Shown: positions 1-13,295 of the stretch, piece after piece
Numbering within the stretch: the stretch's first letter is position 1
Layout: each line of letters starts with the position of its first letter
Source: a virus
Lineage: Duplodnaviria > Heunggongvirae > Uroviricota > Caudoviricetes
DNA: 16,015 nt
Reading direction: 5' to 3' (one strand)
Virus record (IMG/VR): IMGVR_UViG_2851955134_000007
Notes under the pieces: generated by a model
What the model was told of the DNA's origin: nothing
The model's database searches: none
What the model saw: the letters and a program-made list of their open reading frames with translations, nothing else
Translations under genes and position numbers: made by a program

Positions 1-1164
1 TTACGCCTTCTTTATATCCTCCATAATTCCAGAGTGGGACATATTTGGGACATTATCACCAAAAATGTCGTCTATTTTCCTCGCATGCTCTGTCAAATGA
101 TTAGGCGCAAGGTGAGCATACCTACGAACCATTTCTATGGACTCCCATCCGCCCATTTCCTGAAGCACTGATAATGGGACGCCTGACTGAATCAGCCAGC
201 TTGCCCAGGTGTGTCTGAGGTCATGGAAACGGAAATCTTCAATTCCTGCACGACGACAAGCTGATAGCCATGATGTCTTGCTGTCGATGCGCATCTTCCT
301 GACCGCAGGCGTTGATGTTCCATCTGCTCGCTTAGCCGCCTTGGTATGTACAAACACCCATTTGTGATGCTTGCCTATTTGATCACGCAACACTTTACAG
401 GCGGTATCGTTCAGCGCCACACCAATGGCGCGGTTTGATTTGCTCTCTTCTGGATTCACCCAGGCAACTCGTCGCTGCATGTCGATTTGTTGCCATTCCA
501 GATTTATGATGTTCGACTTTCTCAGACCAGTTGCCAGCGCAAACTTGACGACAGATTTCAGTGGTTCGGGGCACTCATCAATAAGGCGTTTTGCTTCCTC
601 CTTTTCCAGCCATCTGACTCGCTTGTTTCTGACCGCTGGTATCTTGATGACAGGCGCTTTTTCCAGCCACTTCCAGTCGCGTTCTGCAGCACGGAGAATG
701 GCCTTTATCATGGCAAGATGCTTTGCCTTTGTCTGAGTTGATACTGGCTTTGGTTCATAAACAGGCGGTTCTTTACCTTTCCTGATGGCGGCCTGAACTT
801 TCTGTTTCCATATTTCTTTCGTCTTTCTGTTATGCATTCTGCTTACAGCAGAGTAAATCTTTGCCTCCGAGATATCTTTAAGCCTTATACCCTCAAAATG
901 TTCAAGCCAGAACTCAATCCGGCTTTTATCTGAATCGAGAGATTTTTTATCAGCTTTTTCCTCAAGCCATCTTAGGCAGGCCTCTTCAAAAGTGACATCA
1001 GGTAAATCCCCTAGCTTTTCTACTCGCCAGAGTTCTGCTTTTCGCTTGTCGTGCAACTCCTGAGCTTGCCGCTTGTCCTTTGTGCCAAGAGATTCCTTAA
1101 TTCGTTTCCCGCCCGGGAGCGAATACGAGGCATACCATATTTTATTTCTGCGGAAGAGTGACAT
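1..1164 (-). CDS. int: Tyrosine-type phage integrase, 387 aa, lambdoid (phage 21 / DLP12 IntD-like)
   Basis: Complete ORF with GAGG Shine-Dalgarno upstream of the ATG at 1164. C-terminal catalytic motifs [10 protein letters not shown] and VRRYAHL (catalytic Tyr). N-terminal arm-binding region resembles lambdoid integrases as recalled. Stop codon sits at window positions 1-3. Confidence 0.9.
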
Positions 1165-1391
1165 TTTCTTTCCTCTGTTATGCCATCACCCGCGCTCACC
1201 TGGACAGTATGCAGCGGAGACTGAAGCGCCGCAATGCAGGCTTGCCGTGTTGTGAGGTAAGGAGATTTTGGCTTGGTTGGATCTTTACGTGTTGCCTGTA
1301 GGCGGCCTGTTCGTATCCAGTTGGTGGCGGTTGGTCTGGATATCTTAAGAAACTGACAGGCCTCATCGAGTGTGAGGCTGTATGATTCCAT
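1020..1391 (-). CDS. xis: Excisionase-like HTH protein (AlpA/Xis family); 3-prime end uncertain
   Basis: ATG at 1391 preceded by GAGG at 5 nt spacing. N-terminal HTH-like segment [24 protein letters not shown]. The ORF runs 145 nt into int, which is unusually long, so the C-terminal extension may not be real. Confidence 0.55.
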
Positions 1392-1641
1392 GGTTACCTC
1401 TGCTTTTTGAACGCATGTCACGTAACTTCTTAATGTGTTCTGCCGTTTCGATCTCTTCTGCTATCCGATCTGCATCAGCTTTATTCACAGGTTCAAAGTC
1501 ATGATTAAAGCGGAACATGCTGGCGATACATGTTCTGCCTTTTCGGATGTAGTGAACTTTGTTGTGGGTAGAACGCAGGATTTTGCAGGGAGTGCCGTGG
1601 TGGTCGACGTACCAGGTGTTAGGCAAAATGATTCTGAACAT
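1363..1641 (-). CDS. Hypothetical prophage early-left protein, 92 aa
   Basis: ORF with good RBS (GAGGTG about 6 nt upstream of the ATG at 1641); overlaps the xis start by 29 nt. No family recognised. Confidence 0.5.
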   Translation of the reverse strand: MFRIILPNTWYVDHHGTPCKILRSTHNKVHYIRKGRTCIASMFRFNHDFEPVNKADADRIAEEIETAEHIKKLRDMRSKSRGNHGIIQPHTR

Positions 1642-1688
1642 TTTTACACCTCAGTTGGACGATGTTGAAATTTGCTGCTTTGAGGCCA

Positions 1689-1907
1689 TCACAATCCCCA
1701 TTGTTTGTTCTTAAGTTCGATCTCCTCCTGGCAGCTTGCACAAGTCCGACAACCCTGAACGGCCAGGCGTCTTCGTTCATCTATGGGATCGCCACACTCA
1801 CAACAATGAGTGGCAGATATAACCTGGTGGTTCAGACGACGCATTTTTATTGCTGTATTGCGCTGTAATTCTTCGATTTCTGATGCTGAATCAATGATGT
1901 CTGCCAT
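1689..1907 (-). CDS. Small zinc-ribbon protein, TraR/DksA-like C4 type, 72 aa
   Basis: Two CxxC pairs (C-C-E-C and C-R-T-C, about 14 residues apart) in a 72 aa ORF, as in phage TraR/DksA-family proteins. Confidence 0.6.
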   Translation of the reverse strand: MADIIDSASEIEELQRNTAIKMRRLNHQVISATHCCECGDPIDERRRLAVQGCRTCASCQEEIELKNKQWGL

Positions 1908-1957
1908 CTTCCATTAATCCCTGAATTGTTGGTTAATACGCTTGAGGGTGAATGCGA

Positions 1958-1985
1958 ATAATAAAAAAGGAGCCTGTAGCTCCCT
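1958..1985 (-). terminator. Intrinsic terminator candidate for leftward transcription
   Basis: Minus-strand hairpin GGAGC-loop-GCTCC (1969-1983) followed by a T run (plus-strand A run 1963-1968). Lies between the 71 aa ORF stop and the zinc-ribbon gene start. Confidence 0.45.
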
Positions 1986-2005
1986 GATGATTTTGCTTTT
2001 CATGT

Positions 2006-2221
2006 TCATCGCTCCTTAAAGACGCCGTTTAACATGCCGATCGCCAGGCTTAAATGAGTCGGTGTGAATCCCATCAGCGTTACCGTTTCGCGGTGCTTCT
2101 TCAGTACGCTACGGCAAATGTCATCGACGTTTTTATCCGGAAACTGCTGTCTGGCTTTTTTGATTTCAGAATTAGCCTGACGGGCTATGCTGCGAAGGGC
2201 GTTTTCCTGCTGAGGTGTCAT
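2006..2221 (-). CDS. Hypothetical protein, 71 aa (MTPQQENALRSIARQ...)
   Basis: Start chosen at the ATG at 2221, which overlaps the stop of an upstream 27 aa ORF (ATGA). The 104 aa extension in the ORF track has no RBS support. Confidence 0.45.
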   Translation of the reverse strand: MTPQQENALRSIARQANSEIKKARQQFPDKNVDDICRSVLKKHRETVTLMGFTPTHLSLAIGMLNGVFKER

Positions 2222-2301
2222 TGAACAAGTCCCATGTCGGCAAGCATAAGCACACAGAATATGAAGCCCGCTGCCAGAAAAATGCATTCCGTGGTTGTCA
2301 T
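2218..2301 (-). CDS. Putative small hydrophobic peptide, 27 aa (MTTTECIFLAAGFIFCVLMLADMGLVQ)
   Basis: Below the ORF-track size cutoff; found by reading the strand. GGAGG about 4 nt upstream of the ATG. Hydrophobic core long enough for one transmembrane helix. Stop overlaps the start of the 71 aa ORF. Confidence 0.3.
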   Translation of the reverse strand: MTTTECIFLAAGFIFCVLMLADMGLVQ

Positions 2302-2369
2302 GCAGCCTCCCGACGGGCAAGAATCCTTGAGCCGAACGCCATCAACTCTCCACGATCAACGGTCGTAAA

Positions 2370-2993
2370 GTGGCAGTGTGTACGGGGGTACAGCAGGTAG
2401 CGCAGATCATCAACGGTGTGTTCAGCCAGTTACTGGCAACTTTCCCGGCGAGCCTGGCTAACCGTGACCAGAACGAAGTGAACGAAATCCGTCGCCAGTG
2501 GGTTCTGGCTTTTCGGGAAAACGGGATCACCACGATGGAACAGGTTAACGCAGGAATGCGCGTAGCCCGTCGGCAGAATCGACCATTTCTGCCATCACCC
2601 GGGCAGTTTGTTGCATGGTGCCGGGAAGAAGCATCCGTTATCGCCGGACTGCCAAACGTCAGCGAGCTGGTTGATATGGTTTACGAGTATTGCCGGAAGC
2701 GAGGCCTGTATCCGGATGCGGAGTCTTATCCGTGGAAATCAAACGCGCACTACTGGCTGGTTACCAACCTGTATCAGAACATGCGGGCCAATGCGCTTAC
2801 TGATGCGGAATTACGCCGTAAGGCCGCAGATGAGCTTGTCCATATGACTGCGAGAATTAACCGTGGTGAGGCGATCCCTGAACCAGTAAAACAACTTCCT
2901 GTCATGGGCGGTAGACCTCTAAATCGTGCACAGGCTCTGGCGAAGATCTCAGAAATCAAAGCTAAGTTCGGACTAAAAGGAGCAAGTGTATGA
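2370..2993 (+). pseudogene. P: Replication protein P, C-terminal fragment (about 200 aa); N-terminus deleted
   Basis: From about 2385 (VQQVAQIINGVFSQLLATFPASLANRDQNEVNEIRRQWVLAFRENG...) the translation matches the C-terminal part of lambda P as recalled. Upstream sequence is unrelated and the only in-frame start is a GTG without RBS. Confidence 0.85.
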
Positions 2994-3280
2994 CGGGCAA
3001 AGAGGCAATTATTCATTACCTGGGGACGCATAATAGCTTCTGTGCGCCGGACGTTGCCGCGCTAACAGGCGCAACAGTAACCAGCATAAATCAGGCCGCG
3101 GCTAAAATGGCACGGGCAGGTCTTCTGGTTATCGAAGGTAAGGTCTGGCGAACGGTGTATTACCGGTTTGCTACTAGGGAAGAACGGGAAGGAAAGATGA
3201 GCACGAACCTGATTTTTAAGGAGTGTCGCCAGAGTGCCGCGATGAAACGGGTATTGGCGGTATATGGAGTTAAAAGATGA
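2990..3280 (+). CDS. ren: Ren protein, 96 aa
   Basis: MTGKEAIIHYLGTHNSFCAPDVAALTGATVTS... matches lambda Ren as recalled. ATG overlaps the P stop (ATGA). Confidence 0.85.
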   Translation: MTGKEAIIHYLGTHNSFCAPDVAALTGATVTSINQAAAKMARAGLLVIEGKVWRTVYYRFATREEREGKMSTNLIFKECRQSAAMKRVLAVYGVKR

Positions 3281-3305
3281 CCATCTACATTACTGAGCTA
3301 ATAAC

Positions 3306-3337
3306 AGGCCTGCTGGTAATCGCAGGCCTTTTTATTT
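3306..3337 (+). terminator. Rho-independent terminator, tR2-like
   Basis: Stem AGGCCTGC (3306-3313) / GCAGGCCT (3322-3329) with 8-nt loop, followed by TTTTTATTT. Same position (between ren and ninB) as lambda tR2. Confidence 0.7.
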
Positions 3338-3353
3338 GGGGGAGAGGGAAGTC

Positions 3354-3794
3354 ATGAAAAAACTAACCTTTGAAATTCGATCTCCAGCACATCAGCAAAA
3401 CGCTATTCACGCAGTACAGCAAATCCTTCCAGACCCAACCAAACCAATCGTAGTAACCATTCAGGAACGCAACCGCAGCTTAGACCAAAACAGGAAGCTA
3501 TGGGCCTGCTTAGGTGACGTCTCTCGTCAGGTTGAATGGCATGGTCGCTGGCTGGATGCAGAAAGCTGGAAGTGTGTGTTTACCGCAGCATTAAAGCAGC
3601 AGGATGTTGTTCCTAACCTTGCCGGGAATGGCTTTGTGGTAATAGGCCAGTCAACCAGCAGGATGCGTGTAGGCGAATTTGCGGAGCTATTAGAGCTTAT
3701 ACAGGCATTCGGTACAGAGCGTGGCGTTAAGTGGTCAGACGAAGCGAGACTGGCTCTGGAGTGGAAAGCGAGATGGGGAGATCGGGCTGCATGA
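3354..3794 (+). CDS. ninB: NinB (recombination mediator, Orf family), 146 aa
   Basis: MKKLTFEIRSPAHQQNAIHAVQQILPDPTKPIVVTIQERNRSLDQNRKLW... recognised as lambda NinB. GGGAGAGGGAAG RBS upstream. Confidence 0.9.
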   Translation: MKKLTFEIRSPAHQQNAIHAVQQILPDPTKPIVVTIQERNRSLDQNRKLWACLGDVSRQVEWHGRWLDAESWKCVFTAALKQQDVVPNLAGNGFVVIGQSTSRMRVGEFAELLELIQAFGTERGVKWSDEARLALEWKARWGDRAA

Positions 3795-6199: not shown

Positions 6200-7160
6200 T
6201 TAGAACTGATACACCAGACCTACAGCGACGATGTCGTCGGTATCAATACCAGCTGTTTTGGTAAACTTACTATCGTCAATTAAGTTGATTTTGTAATCAA
6301 CAAAAGTGGACATGTTTTTATTAAAGTAGTAAGTAGCACCGACATCGACATACTTGACTAAGTCTCGGTCACCATGAACACCAAGGTCTTTACCTTTTGA
6401 CTGAAGGTAAGCAACAGATGGTCGCAGACCGAAGTCAAACTGATATTGTGCTACTGCTTCAAAGTTTTGTGCTTTGTTTGCAATATGGTTATTACCAAAA
6501 ACGGTCATATTCTGAGTTTCAGAATATGTGGTAGCCAGATAGATATTGTTCGCATCATATTTCAGGCCTGCAGCCCATACTTCCGCATTTTTGCCGGAGG
6601 CATTGAATTTGCTCTTACCATAGGCGACCTGACCGTCAGTGCGATCTGATTTAGCATAGGTTGCACCCACGCCGAATCCTTCATACTCATAAGTAGTGGA
6701 GAAACCGAAACCATCACCATTGGCTTCAGTTACGTCAGTGCGGTCATTTTTACCCTGATACTGAGCAGCAAAGTTCAGGCCATCGACCAGACCAAAGAAG
6801 TCGTTGTTACGATAGGTTGCAACACCAGTGGTGCGACCAGTCATGAACACATCTGTTTGGGTCCAGGTATCGCCACCGAATTCTGGCAGAACGTCAGTCC
6901 ACGCACCGATGTCGTATGCTACACCGTAGTTACGGCCGTAATCGATTGAGCCGTAGTCACCGAATTTCAGGCCTGCAAATGCAAGACGGGTTTTGTCTTT
7001 GGAGGAACCTTGAGATTCAGCGCGGTTGCCTTTGAATTCATATTCCCACTGACCGAAACCAGTCAGTTGATCGTTGATTTGGGTTTCACCTTTGAAGCCA
7101 AGACGGGCATAAGTAGTATCACCATCATCTGCATCGTTAGATGAAAAGTAGTGCTTGGCA
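6200..7160 (-). pseudogene. nmpC: Porin NmpC (OmpC/OmpD family), 3-prime portion from codon 44 to stop, cut off by IS10
   Basis: Translation ...[42 protein letters not shown]... to C-terminal ...VGLVYQF (terminal Phe typical of outer-membrane beta-barrels). The MRGSLSA start in the ORF track is read-through from the IS10 end, not a real start. Confidence 0.9.
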
Positions 7161-7173
7161 CTGAGAGATCCCC

Positions 7174-8382
7174 TCATAATTTCCCCAAAACGTAACCATG
7201 TGTGAATAGATTTTGAGTAAGCAGGGTTGCAGCCACGAGTGAGTCTTCCCTTGTTATTGTGTAGCCAGAATGCCGCAAAACTTCCATGCCTAAGCGAACT
7301 GTTGAGAGTACGTTTCGATTTCTGACTGTGTTAGCCTGGAAGTGCTTGTCCCAACCTTGTTTCTGAGCATGAACGCCCGCAAGCCAACATGTTAGTTGAA
7401 GCATCAGGGCGATTAGCAGCATGATATCAAAACGCTCTGAGCTGCTCGTTCGGCTATGGCGTAGGCCTAGTCCGTAGGCAGGACTTTTCAAGTCTCGGAA
7501 GGTTTCTTCAATCTGCATTCGCTTCGAATAGATATTAACAAGTTGTTTGGGTGTTCGAATTTCAACAGGTAAGTTAGTTGCTAGAATCCATGGCTCCTTT
7601 GCCGACGCTGAGTAGATTTTAGGTGACGGGTGGTGACAATGAGTCCGTGTCGAGCGCTGATTTTTTCGGCCTTTAGAGCGAGATTTATACAATAGAATTT
7701 GGCATGAGATTGGATTGCTTTTAGTCAGCCTCTTATAGCCTAAAGTCTTTGAGTGACTAGATGACATATCATGTAAGTTGCTGATAGGTTTCCAGTTTTC
7801 CGCTCCTAGGTCTGCATATTGTACTTTTCCTCTTACTCGACTTAACCAGTACCAACCCAGCTTCTCAACGGATTTATACCATGGCACTTTAAAGCCAGCA
7901 TCACTGACAATGAGCGGTGTGGTGTTACTCGGTAGAATGCTCGCAAGGTCGGCTAGAAATTGGTCATGAGCTTTCTTTGAACATTGCTCTGAAAGCGGGA
8001 ACGCTTTCTCATAAAGAGTAACAGAACGACCGTGTAGTGCGACTGAAGCTCGCAATACCATAAGCCGTTTTTGCTCACGGATATCAGACCAGTCAACAAG
8101 TACAATGGGCATCGTATTGCCCGAACAGATAAAGCTAGCATGCCAACGGTATACAGCGAGTCGCTCTTTGTGGAGGTGACGATTACCTAACAATCGGTCG
8201 ATTCGTTTGATGTTATGTTTTGTTCTCGCTTTGGTTGGCAGGTTACGGCCAAGTTCGGTAAGAGTGAGAGTTTTACAGTCAAGTAAGGCGTGGCAAGCCA
8301 ACGTTAAGCTGTTGAGTCGTTTTAAGTGTAATTCGGGGCAGAATTGGTAAAGAGAGTCGTGTAAAATATCGAGTTCGCACAT
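7174..8382 (-). CDS. tnp: IS10 transposase, 402 aa
   Basis: [71 protein letters not shown]... recognised as IS10/Tn10 transposase. Start 108 bp from the outside end, as in IS10. Confidence 0.95.
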
Positions 8383-8443
8383 TTTGTTGTCTGATTATTG
8401 ATTTTTGGCGAAACCATTTGATCATATGACAAGATGTGTATCT
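8375..8443 (+). ncRNA. IS10 RNA-OUT antisense RNA (position by analogy with canonical IS10)
   Basis: Region antisense to the transposase 5-prime end; sequence TCGCACATTTTGTTGTCTGATTATTGATTTTTGGCGAAACCATTTGATCATATGACAAG resembles RNA-OUT as recalled and contains the Dam GATC site. Exact ends not determined from sequence. Confidence 0.45.
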
Positions 8444-8489
8444 ACCTTAACTTAATGATTTTGATAAAAATCATTAGGGGATTCATCAG

Positions 8490-8620
8490 TGCTTGGCATT
8501 AACTTTCCCGTACAGATCCAGCTTGTTACTGTCTTTATTATAAATTTCAGCTGCCTGAGCAGACATCGTCATCAGTACTGATGCAGCTACAGCAGAAATT
8601 GCCACTGTTAATTTTTTCAT
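8490..8620 (-). pseudogene. nmpC: Porin NmpC, 5-prime portion (signal peptide plus first mature residues), separated from the rest by IS10
   Basis: Minus-strand translation MKKLTVAISAVAASVLMTMSAQAAEIYNKDSNKLDLYGKVNAKH: signal peptide with AQA-AE cleavage site. Reading frame joins exactly to the 3-prime portion once IS10 and one repeat copy are removed (1083 nt, 360 codons plus stop). Confidence 0.9.
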
Positions 8621-10704: not shown

Positions 10705-11063
10705 CTTATTATCCTGCATTGTTAAAAACGGCAGAATCCTATGTGACAACAATTAAACGATAGTTAAATGGATTGATGAAAATTAAAACTATATAGGTGG
10801 ATGCTCAGCCTATTGGAGGAGGGGGGCACTCAGAATCCTGTGGAATGAAATAAACCGCTCTTTCTGTCCATTACCCTTTTAGCTGCGCTGTATCGTCGCC
10901 GTATTCCCGCATTAACCATGACCGTAGCCCGACGGGGAATTCCTTCTGCGTGAGTGTGCGGGAATAATCAAAAACGATGCACACCGGGTTTTACTGTGCT
11001 GACAGACGCAGGGTTACCCTCATAGTCGCTTTTCCGGTGCGATGGTGGAAGAAACCGGGATGT

Positions 11064-11258
11064 TTATTCATCATCACTCTGGATTGATGTATATGCTCTC
11101 TTTTCTGACGTTAGTCTCCGACGGCAGGCTTCAATGACCCAGGCTGAGAAATTCCCAGACCCTTTTTGCTCAAGAGCGATGTTAATTTGTTCAATCATTT
11201 GGTTAGGAAAGCGGATGTTGCGGGTTGTTGTTCTGCGGGTTCTGTTCTTCGTTGACAT
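11064..11258 (-). CDS. Small RHH-like protein, 64 aa (MSTKNRTRRTTTRNIRFPNQMIEQINIALEQKG...)
   Basis: Basic N-terminus followed by a beta-strand-like IRFPNQMIEQI segment typical of ribbon-helix-helix proteins. Position corresponds to the small ORF next to cos at the lambda right end and to ylcI in DLP12 (recall, moderate certainty). Confidence 0.55.
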   Translation of the reverse strand: MSTKNRTRRTTTRNIRFPNQMIEQINIALEQKGSGNFSAWVIEACRRRLTSEKRAYTSIQSDDE

Positions 11259-11419
11259 GAGGTTGCCCCGTATTCAGTGTCGCTGATTTGTATTGTCTGA
11301 AGTTGTTTTTACGTTAAGTTGATGCAGATCAATTAATACGATACCTGCGTCATAATTGATTATTTGACGTGGTTTGATGGCGTAGATGCACGTTGTGACA
11401 TGTAGATGATAATTATTAT

Positions 11420-11640
11420 CATTTTGCGGGTCCTTTCCGGCGATCCGACAGGTTACGGGGCGGCGACCTCGCGGGTTTTCGCTATTTATGAAAATTTTCC
11501 GGTTTAAGGCATTTCCGTTCTTCTTCGTCGTAACTTAATGTTTTTATTTAAAATACCCCCTGAAAAGAAAGGAAACGACAGGTGCTGAAAACGAGCTTTT
11601 GGGCCTCTGTCGTTTCCTTTCTCTGTTTTTGGCCGTGGAA
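11420..11640 (+). other. cos: cos site: cosQ, cosN (12-nt cohesive end GGGCGGCGACCT at 11458-11469) and cosB with terminase-binding repeats
   Basis: Sequence ...CGGGTCCTTTCCGGCGATCCGACAGGTTACG|GGGCGGCGACCTCGCGGGTTTTCGCTATTTATGAAAATTTTCCGGTTTAAGGC... matches the joined right and left ends of phage lambda as recalled. R-element-like repeats AAAGGAAACGACAG (about 11569-11582) and CTGTCGTTTCCTTTCT (about 11608-11623). Confidence 0.85.
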
Positions 11641-11646
11641 TGAACA

Positions 11647-12192
11647 ATGGAAGTCAACAAAAAGCAGCTGGCTGACATTTTCGGTGCGAGTATCCGTACC
11701 ATTCAGAACTGGCAGGAACAGGGAATGCCCGTTCTGCGAGGCGGTGGCAAGGGTAATGAGGTGCTTTATGACTCTGCCGCCGTTATAAGATGGTATGCCG
11801 AAAGGGATGCTGAAATTGAGAACGAAAAGCTGCGCCGGGAAGTTGAAGAACTGCGGCAGGCCAGCGAGACAGATCTCCAGCCAGGGGCTATTGAGTACGA
11901 ACGCCATCGACTTACGCGTGCGCAGGCCGACGCACAGGAGCTGAAAAATGCCAGAGACTCCGCTGAAGTGGTGGAAACCGCATTCTGTACTTTCGTGCTG
12001 TCGCGGATCGCAGGTGAAATTGCCAGTATTCTCGACGGGATCCCCCTGTCGGTGCAGCGGCGTTTTCCGGAACTGGAAAACCGACATGTTGATTTCCTGA
12101 AACGGGATATCATCAAAGCCATGAACAAAGCAGCCGCGCTGGATGAACTGATACCGGGGTTGCTGAGTGAATATATCGAACAGTCAGGTTAA
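11647..12192 (+). CDS. nohD: Terminase small subunit Nu1, 181 aa
   Basis: MEVNKKQLADIFGASIRTIQNWQEQGMPVLRGGGKGNEVLYDSAAVIRWYAERD... near-identical to lambda Nu1 as recalled. Confidence 0.9.
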   Translation: MEVNKKQLADIFGASIRTIQNWQEQGMPVLRGGGKGNEVLYDSAAVIRWYAERDAEIENEKLRREVEELRQASETDLQPGAIEYERHRLTRAQADAQELKNARDSAEVVETAFCTFVLSRIAGEIASILDGIPLSVQRRFPELENRHVDFLKRDIIKAMNKAAALDELIPGLLSEYIEQSG

Positions 12193-12378
12193 CAGGCTGC
12201 GGCATTTTGTCCGCGCCGGGCTTCGCTCACTGTTCAGGCCGGAGCCACAGACCGCCGTTGAATGGGCGGATGCTAATTACTATCTCCCGAAAGAATCCGC
12301 ATACCAGGAAGGGCGCTGGGAAACACTGCCCTTTCAGCGGGCCATCATGAATGCGATGGGCAGCGACTATAACTGTTA
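12167..12378 (+). pseudogene. A: Terminase large subunit A, N-terminal approx 66 codons only
   Basis: MNISNSQVNRLRHFVRAGLRSLFRPEPQTAVEWADANYYLPKESAYQEGRWETLPFQRAIMNAMGSDY matches the lambda gpA N-terminus; similarity ends after GSDY at about 12376-12380. GTG start overlapping the Nu1 3-prime end, as in lambda. Confidence 0.8.
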
Positions 12379-13295
12379 TTAATGAAAATCCGACAGCACA
12401 AGGATATCAGGCAATTGCTGTAAACACGAATGATGCTTACACCTGCCCGGCAGGTTCTTATACGACGATATCGTGTCTGACGAAAAGTGATAATTCCCGG
12501 TGTCGTGCAAGGTTCGGAAAAATGTCTGATAATGGTGCGTTTGTTTTTCATTCAGATGCAGTTCTGGATCCTGTTACGGGAAATGTTGTTCATGGAAATA
12601 ATGTGACGGTGACGGCAGAAAGAGTCGGTGAATGGTGGTTGTTTACCGCCACTCTTTTTGCAGATGCGGAAATGATAATCAGCTCAAGATTTGAAATCCT
12701 GGCGATGCCTGGAATCAGTATTATCCCCAATGGCTCTACGTTAGATATTGCGATGCCTCAGGCGGAGATTGGGTCGTACAGGACGTCATTTATCATTACT
12801 GAAGGGGCTCCTGGCACTCGCTCCAGCGACATGGTGACAATACCTGTAAGAAACAATATTCACCGATTACCATTCAGTGCTCTTGTTGAAGTTAATAAAA
12901 ACTGGGATATCCCTCCCAGCAAATCACCATTAATCTTTAATGTTAAAGATTATCAGGAAAATGGTCTGTTCACGCATGGATTCCGTGGTAATAATTTCTC
13001 TGATGCCGGTTCTCCTTTTATTTCTATGGGAGGGTGTAATAAATATGTGGCAACAACCCAGAGGAAAATCATTTCAGGCTTCCGTTGTGGCGCTGATGGA
13101 GATGTTCAGGCCGTATGTAATGGTGAATTATCTGTTGCGGCAAAAACAACATGGACTTCAATTGTTCCACGGGCAGTATTGCGAATTGGAGGGCAGGGCA
13201 CTAATGGGGAGTATCATCTTTTTGGTCATATCCGTAATCTGCGTATCTGGCATAAAGAATTAACTGATGCGCAAATGGGGGAGAGTATTAAATGA
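12379..13295 (+). pseudogene. C-terminal approx 305 codons of a receptor-binding / lectin-like (LamG-type jelly-roll) protein, probable tail-fibre remnant fused to the A fragment
   Basis: Frame of ORF 12351-13295. No native start: the ORF ATG is an out-of-frame codon inside the A fragment. C-terminal segment LRIGGQGTNGEYHLFGHIRNLRIWHKELTDAQM resembles the final strands of concanavalin-A-like LamG domains. Domain assignment is from motif recall only. Confidence 0.45.

Follow-up and report, generated by a model that had tools for sequence, protein, structure and literature searches.

A lambda-type cos site and full-length nohD in a DLP12-family cryptic prophage remnant

Escherichia coli K-12 carries at its argU tRNA gene the cryptic lambdoid prophage DLP12 (qsr'), whose late region contains a cos site, the terminase small subunit gene nohD (b0560) and the aaaD pseudogene (b4634). 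Kotani et al. reportedly showed in 1992 that lambda terminase cuts the E. coli chromosome at the cos sites of cryptic prophages, and the noh names ("Nu one homologue") are said to originate from that work. A lambda cos mutant was reportedly rescued from a defective prophage by Fisher and Feiss in 1980, and the paper by Lindsey et al. from 1989 is said to stand beside these two as a classical one. The documented significance of such remnants is that of reservoirs, from which infecting lambdoid phages acquire lysis, cos and nu1 modules through recombination. Lambda recombines into a 3.5-kb DLP12 cos patch (Poteete et al. 2004, PMC545071), and lambda-DLP12 recombinants obtained in K-12, including those with nu1, R or Rz replacements, were all viable (De Paepe et al. 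2014, PMC3945230). In the latter study 10 of 19 crossover junctions adjoined cos, which the authors attributed to breaks made by terminase.

Chromosomal cos sites are also used by terminases supplied in trans. The classical lambda doc particles are said to provide a precedent with docL, described by Sternberg and Weisberg in 1975. In the helper packaging studied by the Feiss laboratory, a repressed cos in the chromosome serves as the start site for the terminase that the helper supplies in trans, and packaging runs rightward (Nu1 to A); the assay relies on another cos in the same orientation, located one genome length downstream (PMC4669245). Cos-type terminases cut the far end at cosQ-cosN, without which the DNA protrudes and tails cannot attach (PMC9026076, PMC4669245). 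Cos-type PICIs such as EcCICFT073 are chromosomal islands that encode an integrase and rely on the helper lambdoid terminase to act at their cos; they have their own cosB-like site, Rpp, a replication module and inducible excision, and carry no phage lysis genes.

The locus described here lies in a window of 16,015 nucleotides, i.e. the whole stretch of DNA that was analysed (IMG/VR record IMGVR_UViG_2851955134_000007). By site and gene content this window is a cryptic lambdoid prophage of the DLP12 family, located at the tRNA gene argU and spanning intD to appY, and the interval 11420-12192 is the known cos-nohD-aaaD' segment of this family, an already described feature. The integrase gene intD is located next to tRNA-Arg argU in matching genomes, appY lies at the other end of the window, and the late region follows the order of DLP12 (rusA, quuD, nmpC/ompC-type porin, essD, rrrD, rzpD, iss/bor, ylcI, cos, nohD). 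The traits that define the family, namely the argU site, the intD-appY/ompT ends and a quuD-essD-rrrD-rzpD-bor-nohD late region, were all found. K-12, REL606, ETEC and TUM9803 matched the window at the argU locus with 98-99.9% identity, and whole-window matches to E. coli chromosomes at this locus reached up to 99.9%, the value for strain TUM9803 at the same chromosomal locus. Identity to E. coli B REL606 was 99.7-99.9% across shared segments except two (92% and 98%). We rejected the ends of the window as att sites, given that the K-12 element reaches past ompT, and dismissed as meaningless the coincidence that three window lengths (about 48 kb) approximate one lambda genome, as there is no replication module.

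The window shares the argU/intD-appY site and the gene order with K-12 DLP12 and is 98.1% identical to it over 11047-12369, where both have a full-length nohD and a truncated gpA. K-12 differs in carrying C53T in the R3 box of cosB, where the window has G54A, in keeping lambda-like ybcV/ybcW upstream and in an independent deletion, which leaves gpA up to lambda 1018 (102 codons) joined to tfa at 22119, whereas homology in the window stops at 913. The window in turn lacks emrE-ybcK-ybcL-ybcM and has an IS10-like insertion.

Window positions 11047-12369 were collinear with the circularly joined ends of lambda (NC_001416), matching 48092-48502 (95.9%) and then 1-913 (98.2%). Within the interval 11420-12192, 755 of 773 bases were identical to lambda, with one additional 1-bp gap, in agreement with the preliminary description, according to which cos and a full-length Nu1 are preserved almost base for base. 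With sub-sites defined after Murialdo & Feiss 2022 (PMC9026076) and Feiss et al. 2015 (PMC4669245), the cos consists of the following parts.

11428-11434, plus strand: cosQ (GGGTCCT), packaging-termination element, identical to lambda 48473-48479
11453-11474, plus strand: cosN nicking site, 22/22 identical to lambda 48498-48502 plus 1-17
11458-11469, plus strand: 12-nt cohesive end GGGCGGCGACCT, with lambda bp 1 at 11458
11475-11506, plus strand: I2, spacer from cosN to cosB, identical to lambda bp 18-49, spacing to R3 unchanged
11507-11522, plus strand: R3 of cosB, TerS binding site, 15/16 identical, lambda G54 changed to A at 11511
11523-11565, plus strand: I1, segment from R3 to R2 with the IHF bending site, differing from lambda at two bases (bp 73 A to G, bp 102 T to C)
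11566-11581, minus strand: R2 of cosB, inverted, 16/16 identical to lambda 109-124
11607-11622, plus strand: R1 of cosB, 16/16 identical to lambda 151-166

The features of a lambda-type cos, i.e. cosN, cosQ at lambda spacing and a lambda-specificity cosB (R3-I1-R2 inverted-R1), were thus all present. The spacer between cosQ and cosN carries one substitution, at 11441; the exact lambda coordinates of cosQ we take to be those of Wieczorek and Feiss from 2001. The sequence GGGCGGCGACCT was found once in the window, where 0.04 copies would be expected by chance, and it agrees with the 'cos site' annotated in phage DE3. Three further differences from lambda, plus the absence of lambda G138, lie between R2 and the start of nohD. 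The window therefore has cosQ, cosN, I2, R2 and R1 as well as sub-site order and spacing in common with lambda; unlike lambda, it has no functional gpA, and a single cos in the chromosome instead of a concatemer. The 7-bp cosQ is highly conserved in general (PMC4669245).

Each difference of the window cos from lambda occurs in at least one deposited phage genome. Phage PhiR42_1 and the window are base-identical from lambda 48427 to 190, including cosQ, cosN and cosB. That PhiR42_1 is viable is assumed on the strength of its GenBank entry, which gives a complete genome and a named host; we found no paper on plaque formation. The R3 change G54A is common to the window, PhiR42_1 and K-12 Qin, the neighbouring change C53T is found in K-12 DLP12, phage 2H10 and Stx1 phages, and the two I1 changes occur together in phages 2H10 and PhiR34_1, the one at bp 73 also in Kati. 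The base G138 of lambda NC_001416, which would fall between window positions 11594 and 11595, was absent from all other cos sites compared, among them that of DE3, which is derived from lambda, those of four natural phages and those of all prophage remnants; because of its absence Nu1 starts 189 and not 190 bp after the first cohesive-end base. The cos of K-12 Qin is a hybrid, identical to lambda on the left of cosN and exactly the cosB variant of the window on the right, and in sequence it looks like the product of a crossover at cos, which would fit cos as a recombination hot spot.

Downstream of cos there are two terminase genes.

11647-12192, plus strand: nohD (RefSeq name), full-length terminase small subunit gene (Nu1 homologue), 181 aa
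12167-12382, plus strand: aaaD-type pseudogene, 5' stub of gpA, 71 codons (residues 1-68 of 641, then NCY and a stop)

NohD matched the Pfam family Phage_Nu1 (PF07471) over profile positions 1-164 of 164 (E 1.3e-100) and is hence a member of the Nu1 family. It was identical to lambda Nu1 at 177 of 181 residues, with the substitutions K48R, A75T, T81A and L132I, and residues 142-181 were identical throughout. None of the four substitutions affects the recognition helix (residues 17-24) or the wing (31-39), nor do they touch the 40 residues at the C-terminus, which bind TerL. At the nucleotide level nohD differs from lambda by five synonymous and four non-synonymous codon changes. Three of the four amino acid differences circulate in deposited lambdoid phage genomes, while T81A is private to NohD. 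In the gpA stub, homology to lambda ends at 12369 (bp 913), which leaves 67 complete lambda codons and a Y68 preserved by chance. The truncation of gpA had been noted before; the length given then, 66 codons, has to be corrected to 68 gpA residues. There was no Pfam match in the stub, and neither the ATPase/translocase nor the endonuclease domain of gpA was found in it.

A few other observations were made on nohD. Residues 1-55 of its product (window 11647-11811) matched PADLOC mad1, a component of a methylation-associated defence system (E 1e-11). We set this match aside, since it is to a generic 55-residue HTH only and most likely reflects a shared DNA-binding fold. The NohA/NohD "mutations" R48K and R70L (PMC11297538) are paralogue-specific residues and were set aside as uninformative on function. 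A promoter scan around nohD gave 3 sites, with 3.1 expected from shuffles, i.e. no excess.

Lambda homology breaks off at a junction, which we defined by a three-way comparison between lambda, the window and REL606.

12369..12370, no strand: deletion junction between lambda bp 913 and the interior of a tail-fibre gene, 1-bp microhomology
12351-13295, plus strand: chimeric 314-aa ORF, 6 out-of-frame gpA codons including the ATG, then the C-terminal part of the tail fibre

The tail-fibre part of the chimeric ORF matched the REL606 locus from 22207, where the parent gene, encoding 781 aa, is intact. In RefSeq the first gene of this segment is called nohD, the second (K-12 aaaD) an incomplete hypothetical pseudogene and the third a "phage head spike fiber domain-containing protein"; judged from the comparison with REL606, the last of these is a junction artefact. 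We conclude that one deletion, mediated by microhomology, linked gpA codon 68 to the tail-fibre interior and took with it the remaining large terminase and all head and tail genes.

The junction of the window was found in 30 of 5426 complete E. coli genomes. Other remnants end elsewhere. In K-12 DLP12 the junction is lambda 1018::22119 with the microhomology TAT. In REL606, lambda 699 is joined to J at lambda 16135 (microhomology TACC), by which the last 11 nohD codons and all of A were removed, and in K-12 Qin nohA is fused at about lambda 697 to stfQ. The microhomologies at these junctions are short (1-4 bp). Qin nohA and REL606 DLP12 share the cosB variant of the window (A54, G73, C102, A134, G145, G176) and are likewise cos-plus-Nu1 remnants followed by tail-fibre genes. 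They are unlike the window in that the deletion enters nohD at 697-699, so that the last 5-11 residues are replaced and no gpA stub is left; the fused Nu1-type proteins have 189 and 191 aa. When lambda 1-2700 was compared with the 5426 complete genomes, 4478 matching records were obtained, and among 60 genomes taken from these at even spacing by rank the endpoints, besides full-length copies, were 2194, 1758, 1488, 1018, 955, 701, 699, 697 and 427. Judging by these sequences, the left deletion ends in A and in nohD are the result of many independent illegitimate deletions. We had considered that deletions cluster just 3' of cos (699, 913, 1018), which would imply selection for cos/nohD, and dropped this idea because the sampled endpoints span 427-2194, with several inside nohD. 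The starting points of two to three independent deletions lie no more than 5 bp apart at the 3' end of nu1 (lambda 697-701; window about 12153-12157), leading in Qin to stfQ, in E. coli B to J (REL606 locus 17886) and in the '701' class to a tail-tip gene. Their proximity may be coincidental or may point to a small deletion hot spot.

The preliminary description had found it notable that cos and nohD are conserved despite the decay elsewhere. The following identities to lambda speak against this.

gpA stub (lambda 711-913): 203/203, 100%
nohD: 511/520, 98.3%
cosB: 116/120 and 50/52, 96.7% and 96.2%
cosQ-cosN: 52/55, 94.5%
upstream spacer: 359/373, 96.3%

The best-conserved segment is the gpA stub, the one part that is certainly non-functional, and other lineages have lost the 3' end of nohD. 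In its sequence the remnant shows no sign of special preservation. The near identity to lambda would instead reflect a widely shared, recently exchanged phage module, a reading that follows from the circulation of the cos alleles and of three of the four NohD alleles in PhiR42_1, PhiR34_1, 2H10, Kati and Stx1 phages. Intact lambda-type cos-Nu1-A modules were present in 3259 of the 5426 complete genomes. On this reading, cos and nohD would be intact because the deletion happened to begin just downstream of both and because there was too little time for point mutations, selection not being the cause. For nohD the neutral reading rests on few substitutions, which formally leave room for purifying selection. 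The locus represents textbook lambdoid-prophage decay, in which one illegitimate deletion removes the morphogenesis block while the parts outside it (lysis genes, bor/iss, cos, nu1) stay nearly phage-identical for some time. Taken as a whole, the locus is very probably an unselected DLP12 cos-nohD remnant with a single deletion, whose cos is expected to be cleavable and from which mature particles are not expected. Beyond correct annotation it matters little.

With regard to function, the comparisons support the view that, in its sequence, the window cos lacks nothing that a terminase of lambda specificity would need to initiate packaging. It is probably still recognisable by lambda-type phages: recognition with lambda specificity is likely because the site is identical to that of PhiR42_1 and because of the nu1/cos genetics of K-12 DLP12. 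Cleavage of this allele in vivo is expected. The site would be bound and nicked by terminase of lambda specificity (or of the N15 type) that an infecting or induced lambdoid phage provides in trans, and the outcome would be a double-strand break and a recombination hot spot at which phages may swap the lysis-cos-nu1 module with the remnant. An earlier proposal, that a lambda-type helper could recognise this cos by supplying gpA, is therefore likely correct as to recognition but not as to gpA only: any helper brings its own Nu1, and the resident nohD is thus not required for the proposed mechanism. A phage 21-type helper, which had been suggested as well, has the wrong specificity for the lambda-type cosB found here. 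On lambda-specific DNA a 21-specific terminase yielded 8.1e-4 phage per cell, compared with 1.75 for a lambda helper and 0.45 for an N15-type one, so that it packages such DNA about 10^3-fold worse (PMC4669245).

Initiation is one requirement for transduction and termination is another. The idea that the locus could be a source of transducing particles finds no support, since this would require a downstream cosQ-cosN. In the packaging direction no second cosN was detected within 54.4 kb in strain 99-3165 or within 55.3 kb in TUM9803, the two complete genomes with the exact junction of the window that were searched (at most 1 mismatch to the 12-mer, or at most 6 mismatches to the 22-bp cosN). 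In 99-3165 the cos-nohD query matched one genomic place only. The DNA downstream contains appY, ompT, envY, ybcH, nfrAB, a vgrG/rhs cluster, cusSRCFBA, pheP, ybdG, nfsB and ent/fep. A terminase in trans is predicted to start at the window cos and to proceed rightward as in the Feiss-laboratory system; in contrast to that assay, the locus has no second co-oriented cos downstream. At most, unidirectional and unterminated packaging toward appY-ompT-cus-ent would follow, and mature transducing particles are not expected from the window cos alone, as no downstream cos is available to terminate packaging.

Several other explanations have to be weighed against an unselected remnant. The cos might be a dead site that only looks intact, if G54A in R3, together with the other cosB differences, inactivates initiation. 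G54 belongs to the CGTTTCC core that is common to R3, R2 and R1 and is conserved in all three lambda R boxes, and R3 is the most critical of these boxes (PMC9026076). However, R3 extends over lambda bp 50-65 with the TerS contact zone at bp 55-63, so that bp 54 is outside this zone, and the R3 mutations with a known defect affect bp 56, 58 and 59 (PMC9026076). The presence of A54 in PhiR42_1, and of the adjacent C53T in 2H10 and Stx1 phages, also argues against inactivation, as does the finding that the N15 cos functions with R3 only and that the lambda R1 box is a non-essential accessory (PMC4669245). We consider a dead site very unlikely. An initiation-competent cos, as its sequence suggests, in an element with an intact integrase gene intD could also have been kept, with or without nohD, as a selected mobilisation site that allows helper lambdoid phages to package the island, or the chromosome next to it, and to transfer this DNA, be it as a proto-satellite or by cos-dependent lateral transduction. 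The above cos-Nu1-A modules make potential helpers frequent, passive chromosomal prophages are packaged by helpers when two cos sites are present (PMC4669245), and defective prophages have been proposed as proto-hitchers (PMC11389934). Against such a role stand the lack of a downstream cos within a head-full in 99-3165 and TUM9803, the loss of the replication module (O/ori are missing and P lacks its 5' part), the excision of DLP12 in fewer than 1 in 10^5 K-12 cells (PMC3105296), the lysis genes that are still present and a cos that is no better conserved than the neighbouring pseudogene. That nohD at least is not kept follows from the loss of part of it in other lineages. Like cos-type PICIs, the window is a chromosomal island with integrase and cos; unlike them it has a lambda cosB, lacks a replication module and retains lysis genes along with tail-fibre fragments, and it does not qualify as a cos-type satellite. 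Selected mobilisation hence appears improbable to us.

A related reading concerns the single cos remnants of the DLP12 and Qin type, which most E. coli carry. They could seed one-directional packaging of the neighbouring chromosome (appY-ompT-nfrAB-cus-ent) by a helper terminase and so give rise to transducing particles. Such particles could form in strains where another lambda- or 21-type cos lies in the same orientation 38-51 kb downstream, or they might arise at low frequency once nucleases have trimmed the unterminated DNA. This would be a cos-phage analogue of lateral transduction started by dead prophages, and the cos of a dead prophage would mean hidden directional transfer of the ompT-cus-ent region; given the need for a second cos it is unlikely here, and we regard it as improbable overall. 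The remnant might also act as a decoy, with NohD, with or without the 68-aa gpA stub, binding phage cosB or titrating terminase and thereby lowering the yield of superinfecting lambdoid phages. The support for this comes from domain logic. NohD is full length, with DNA-binding domain and C-terminus intact, the TerS-binding domain of TerL is N-terminal (PMC9026076), i.e. within the stub, the PICI protein Rpp is a precedent for a TerS-binding protein that redirects packaging, and the HTH of NohD resembles PADLOC mad1. Yet K-12, whose arrangement is the same, supports the growth of lambda, and lambda readily takes up the DLP12 nu1 (PMC3945230). Neither the stub nor the NohD C-terminus is present in the B and Qin alleles, the PADLOC match is the generic one described above, and promoter sites near nohD are not in excess. 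A decoy role is extremely unlikely.

Some minor observations concern the remainder of the window. Two lambda-like early patches were present, one at 1712-2301 (lambda 30418-31008, 97%) and the other at 2387-3794 (lambda 39677-41084, comprising the 5'-truncated P, ren and ninB; 99.5%). Because O and ori are missing from the window, the element is unable to replicate by itself. The stretch from bor/iss to ylcI (10759-11046) has 288 bp, as in E. coli B and ETEC, while K-12 DLP12 (locus positions 15452-16734) and lambda hold about 1.3 kb there (ybcV/ybcW, lambda p78/p79), a further lineage-specific difference inside the 'same' prophage. An IS10-like insertion at 7161-8487 splits the nmpC/ompC-type porin gene, of which a remnant ORF is left at 6200-7177 on the minus strand. 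The inserted element encodes an IS4-family transposase of 402 aa (7174-8382, minus strand) and has the direct repeat AGTGCTTGGCA on either side (7150-7160 and 8488-8498); the TUM9803 and REL606 loci, otherwise 99.9% identical, are without it. As REL606 has IS1 and K-12 has IS5 in the same porin gene, this gene has been hit independently at least three times.
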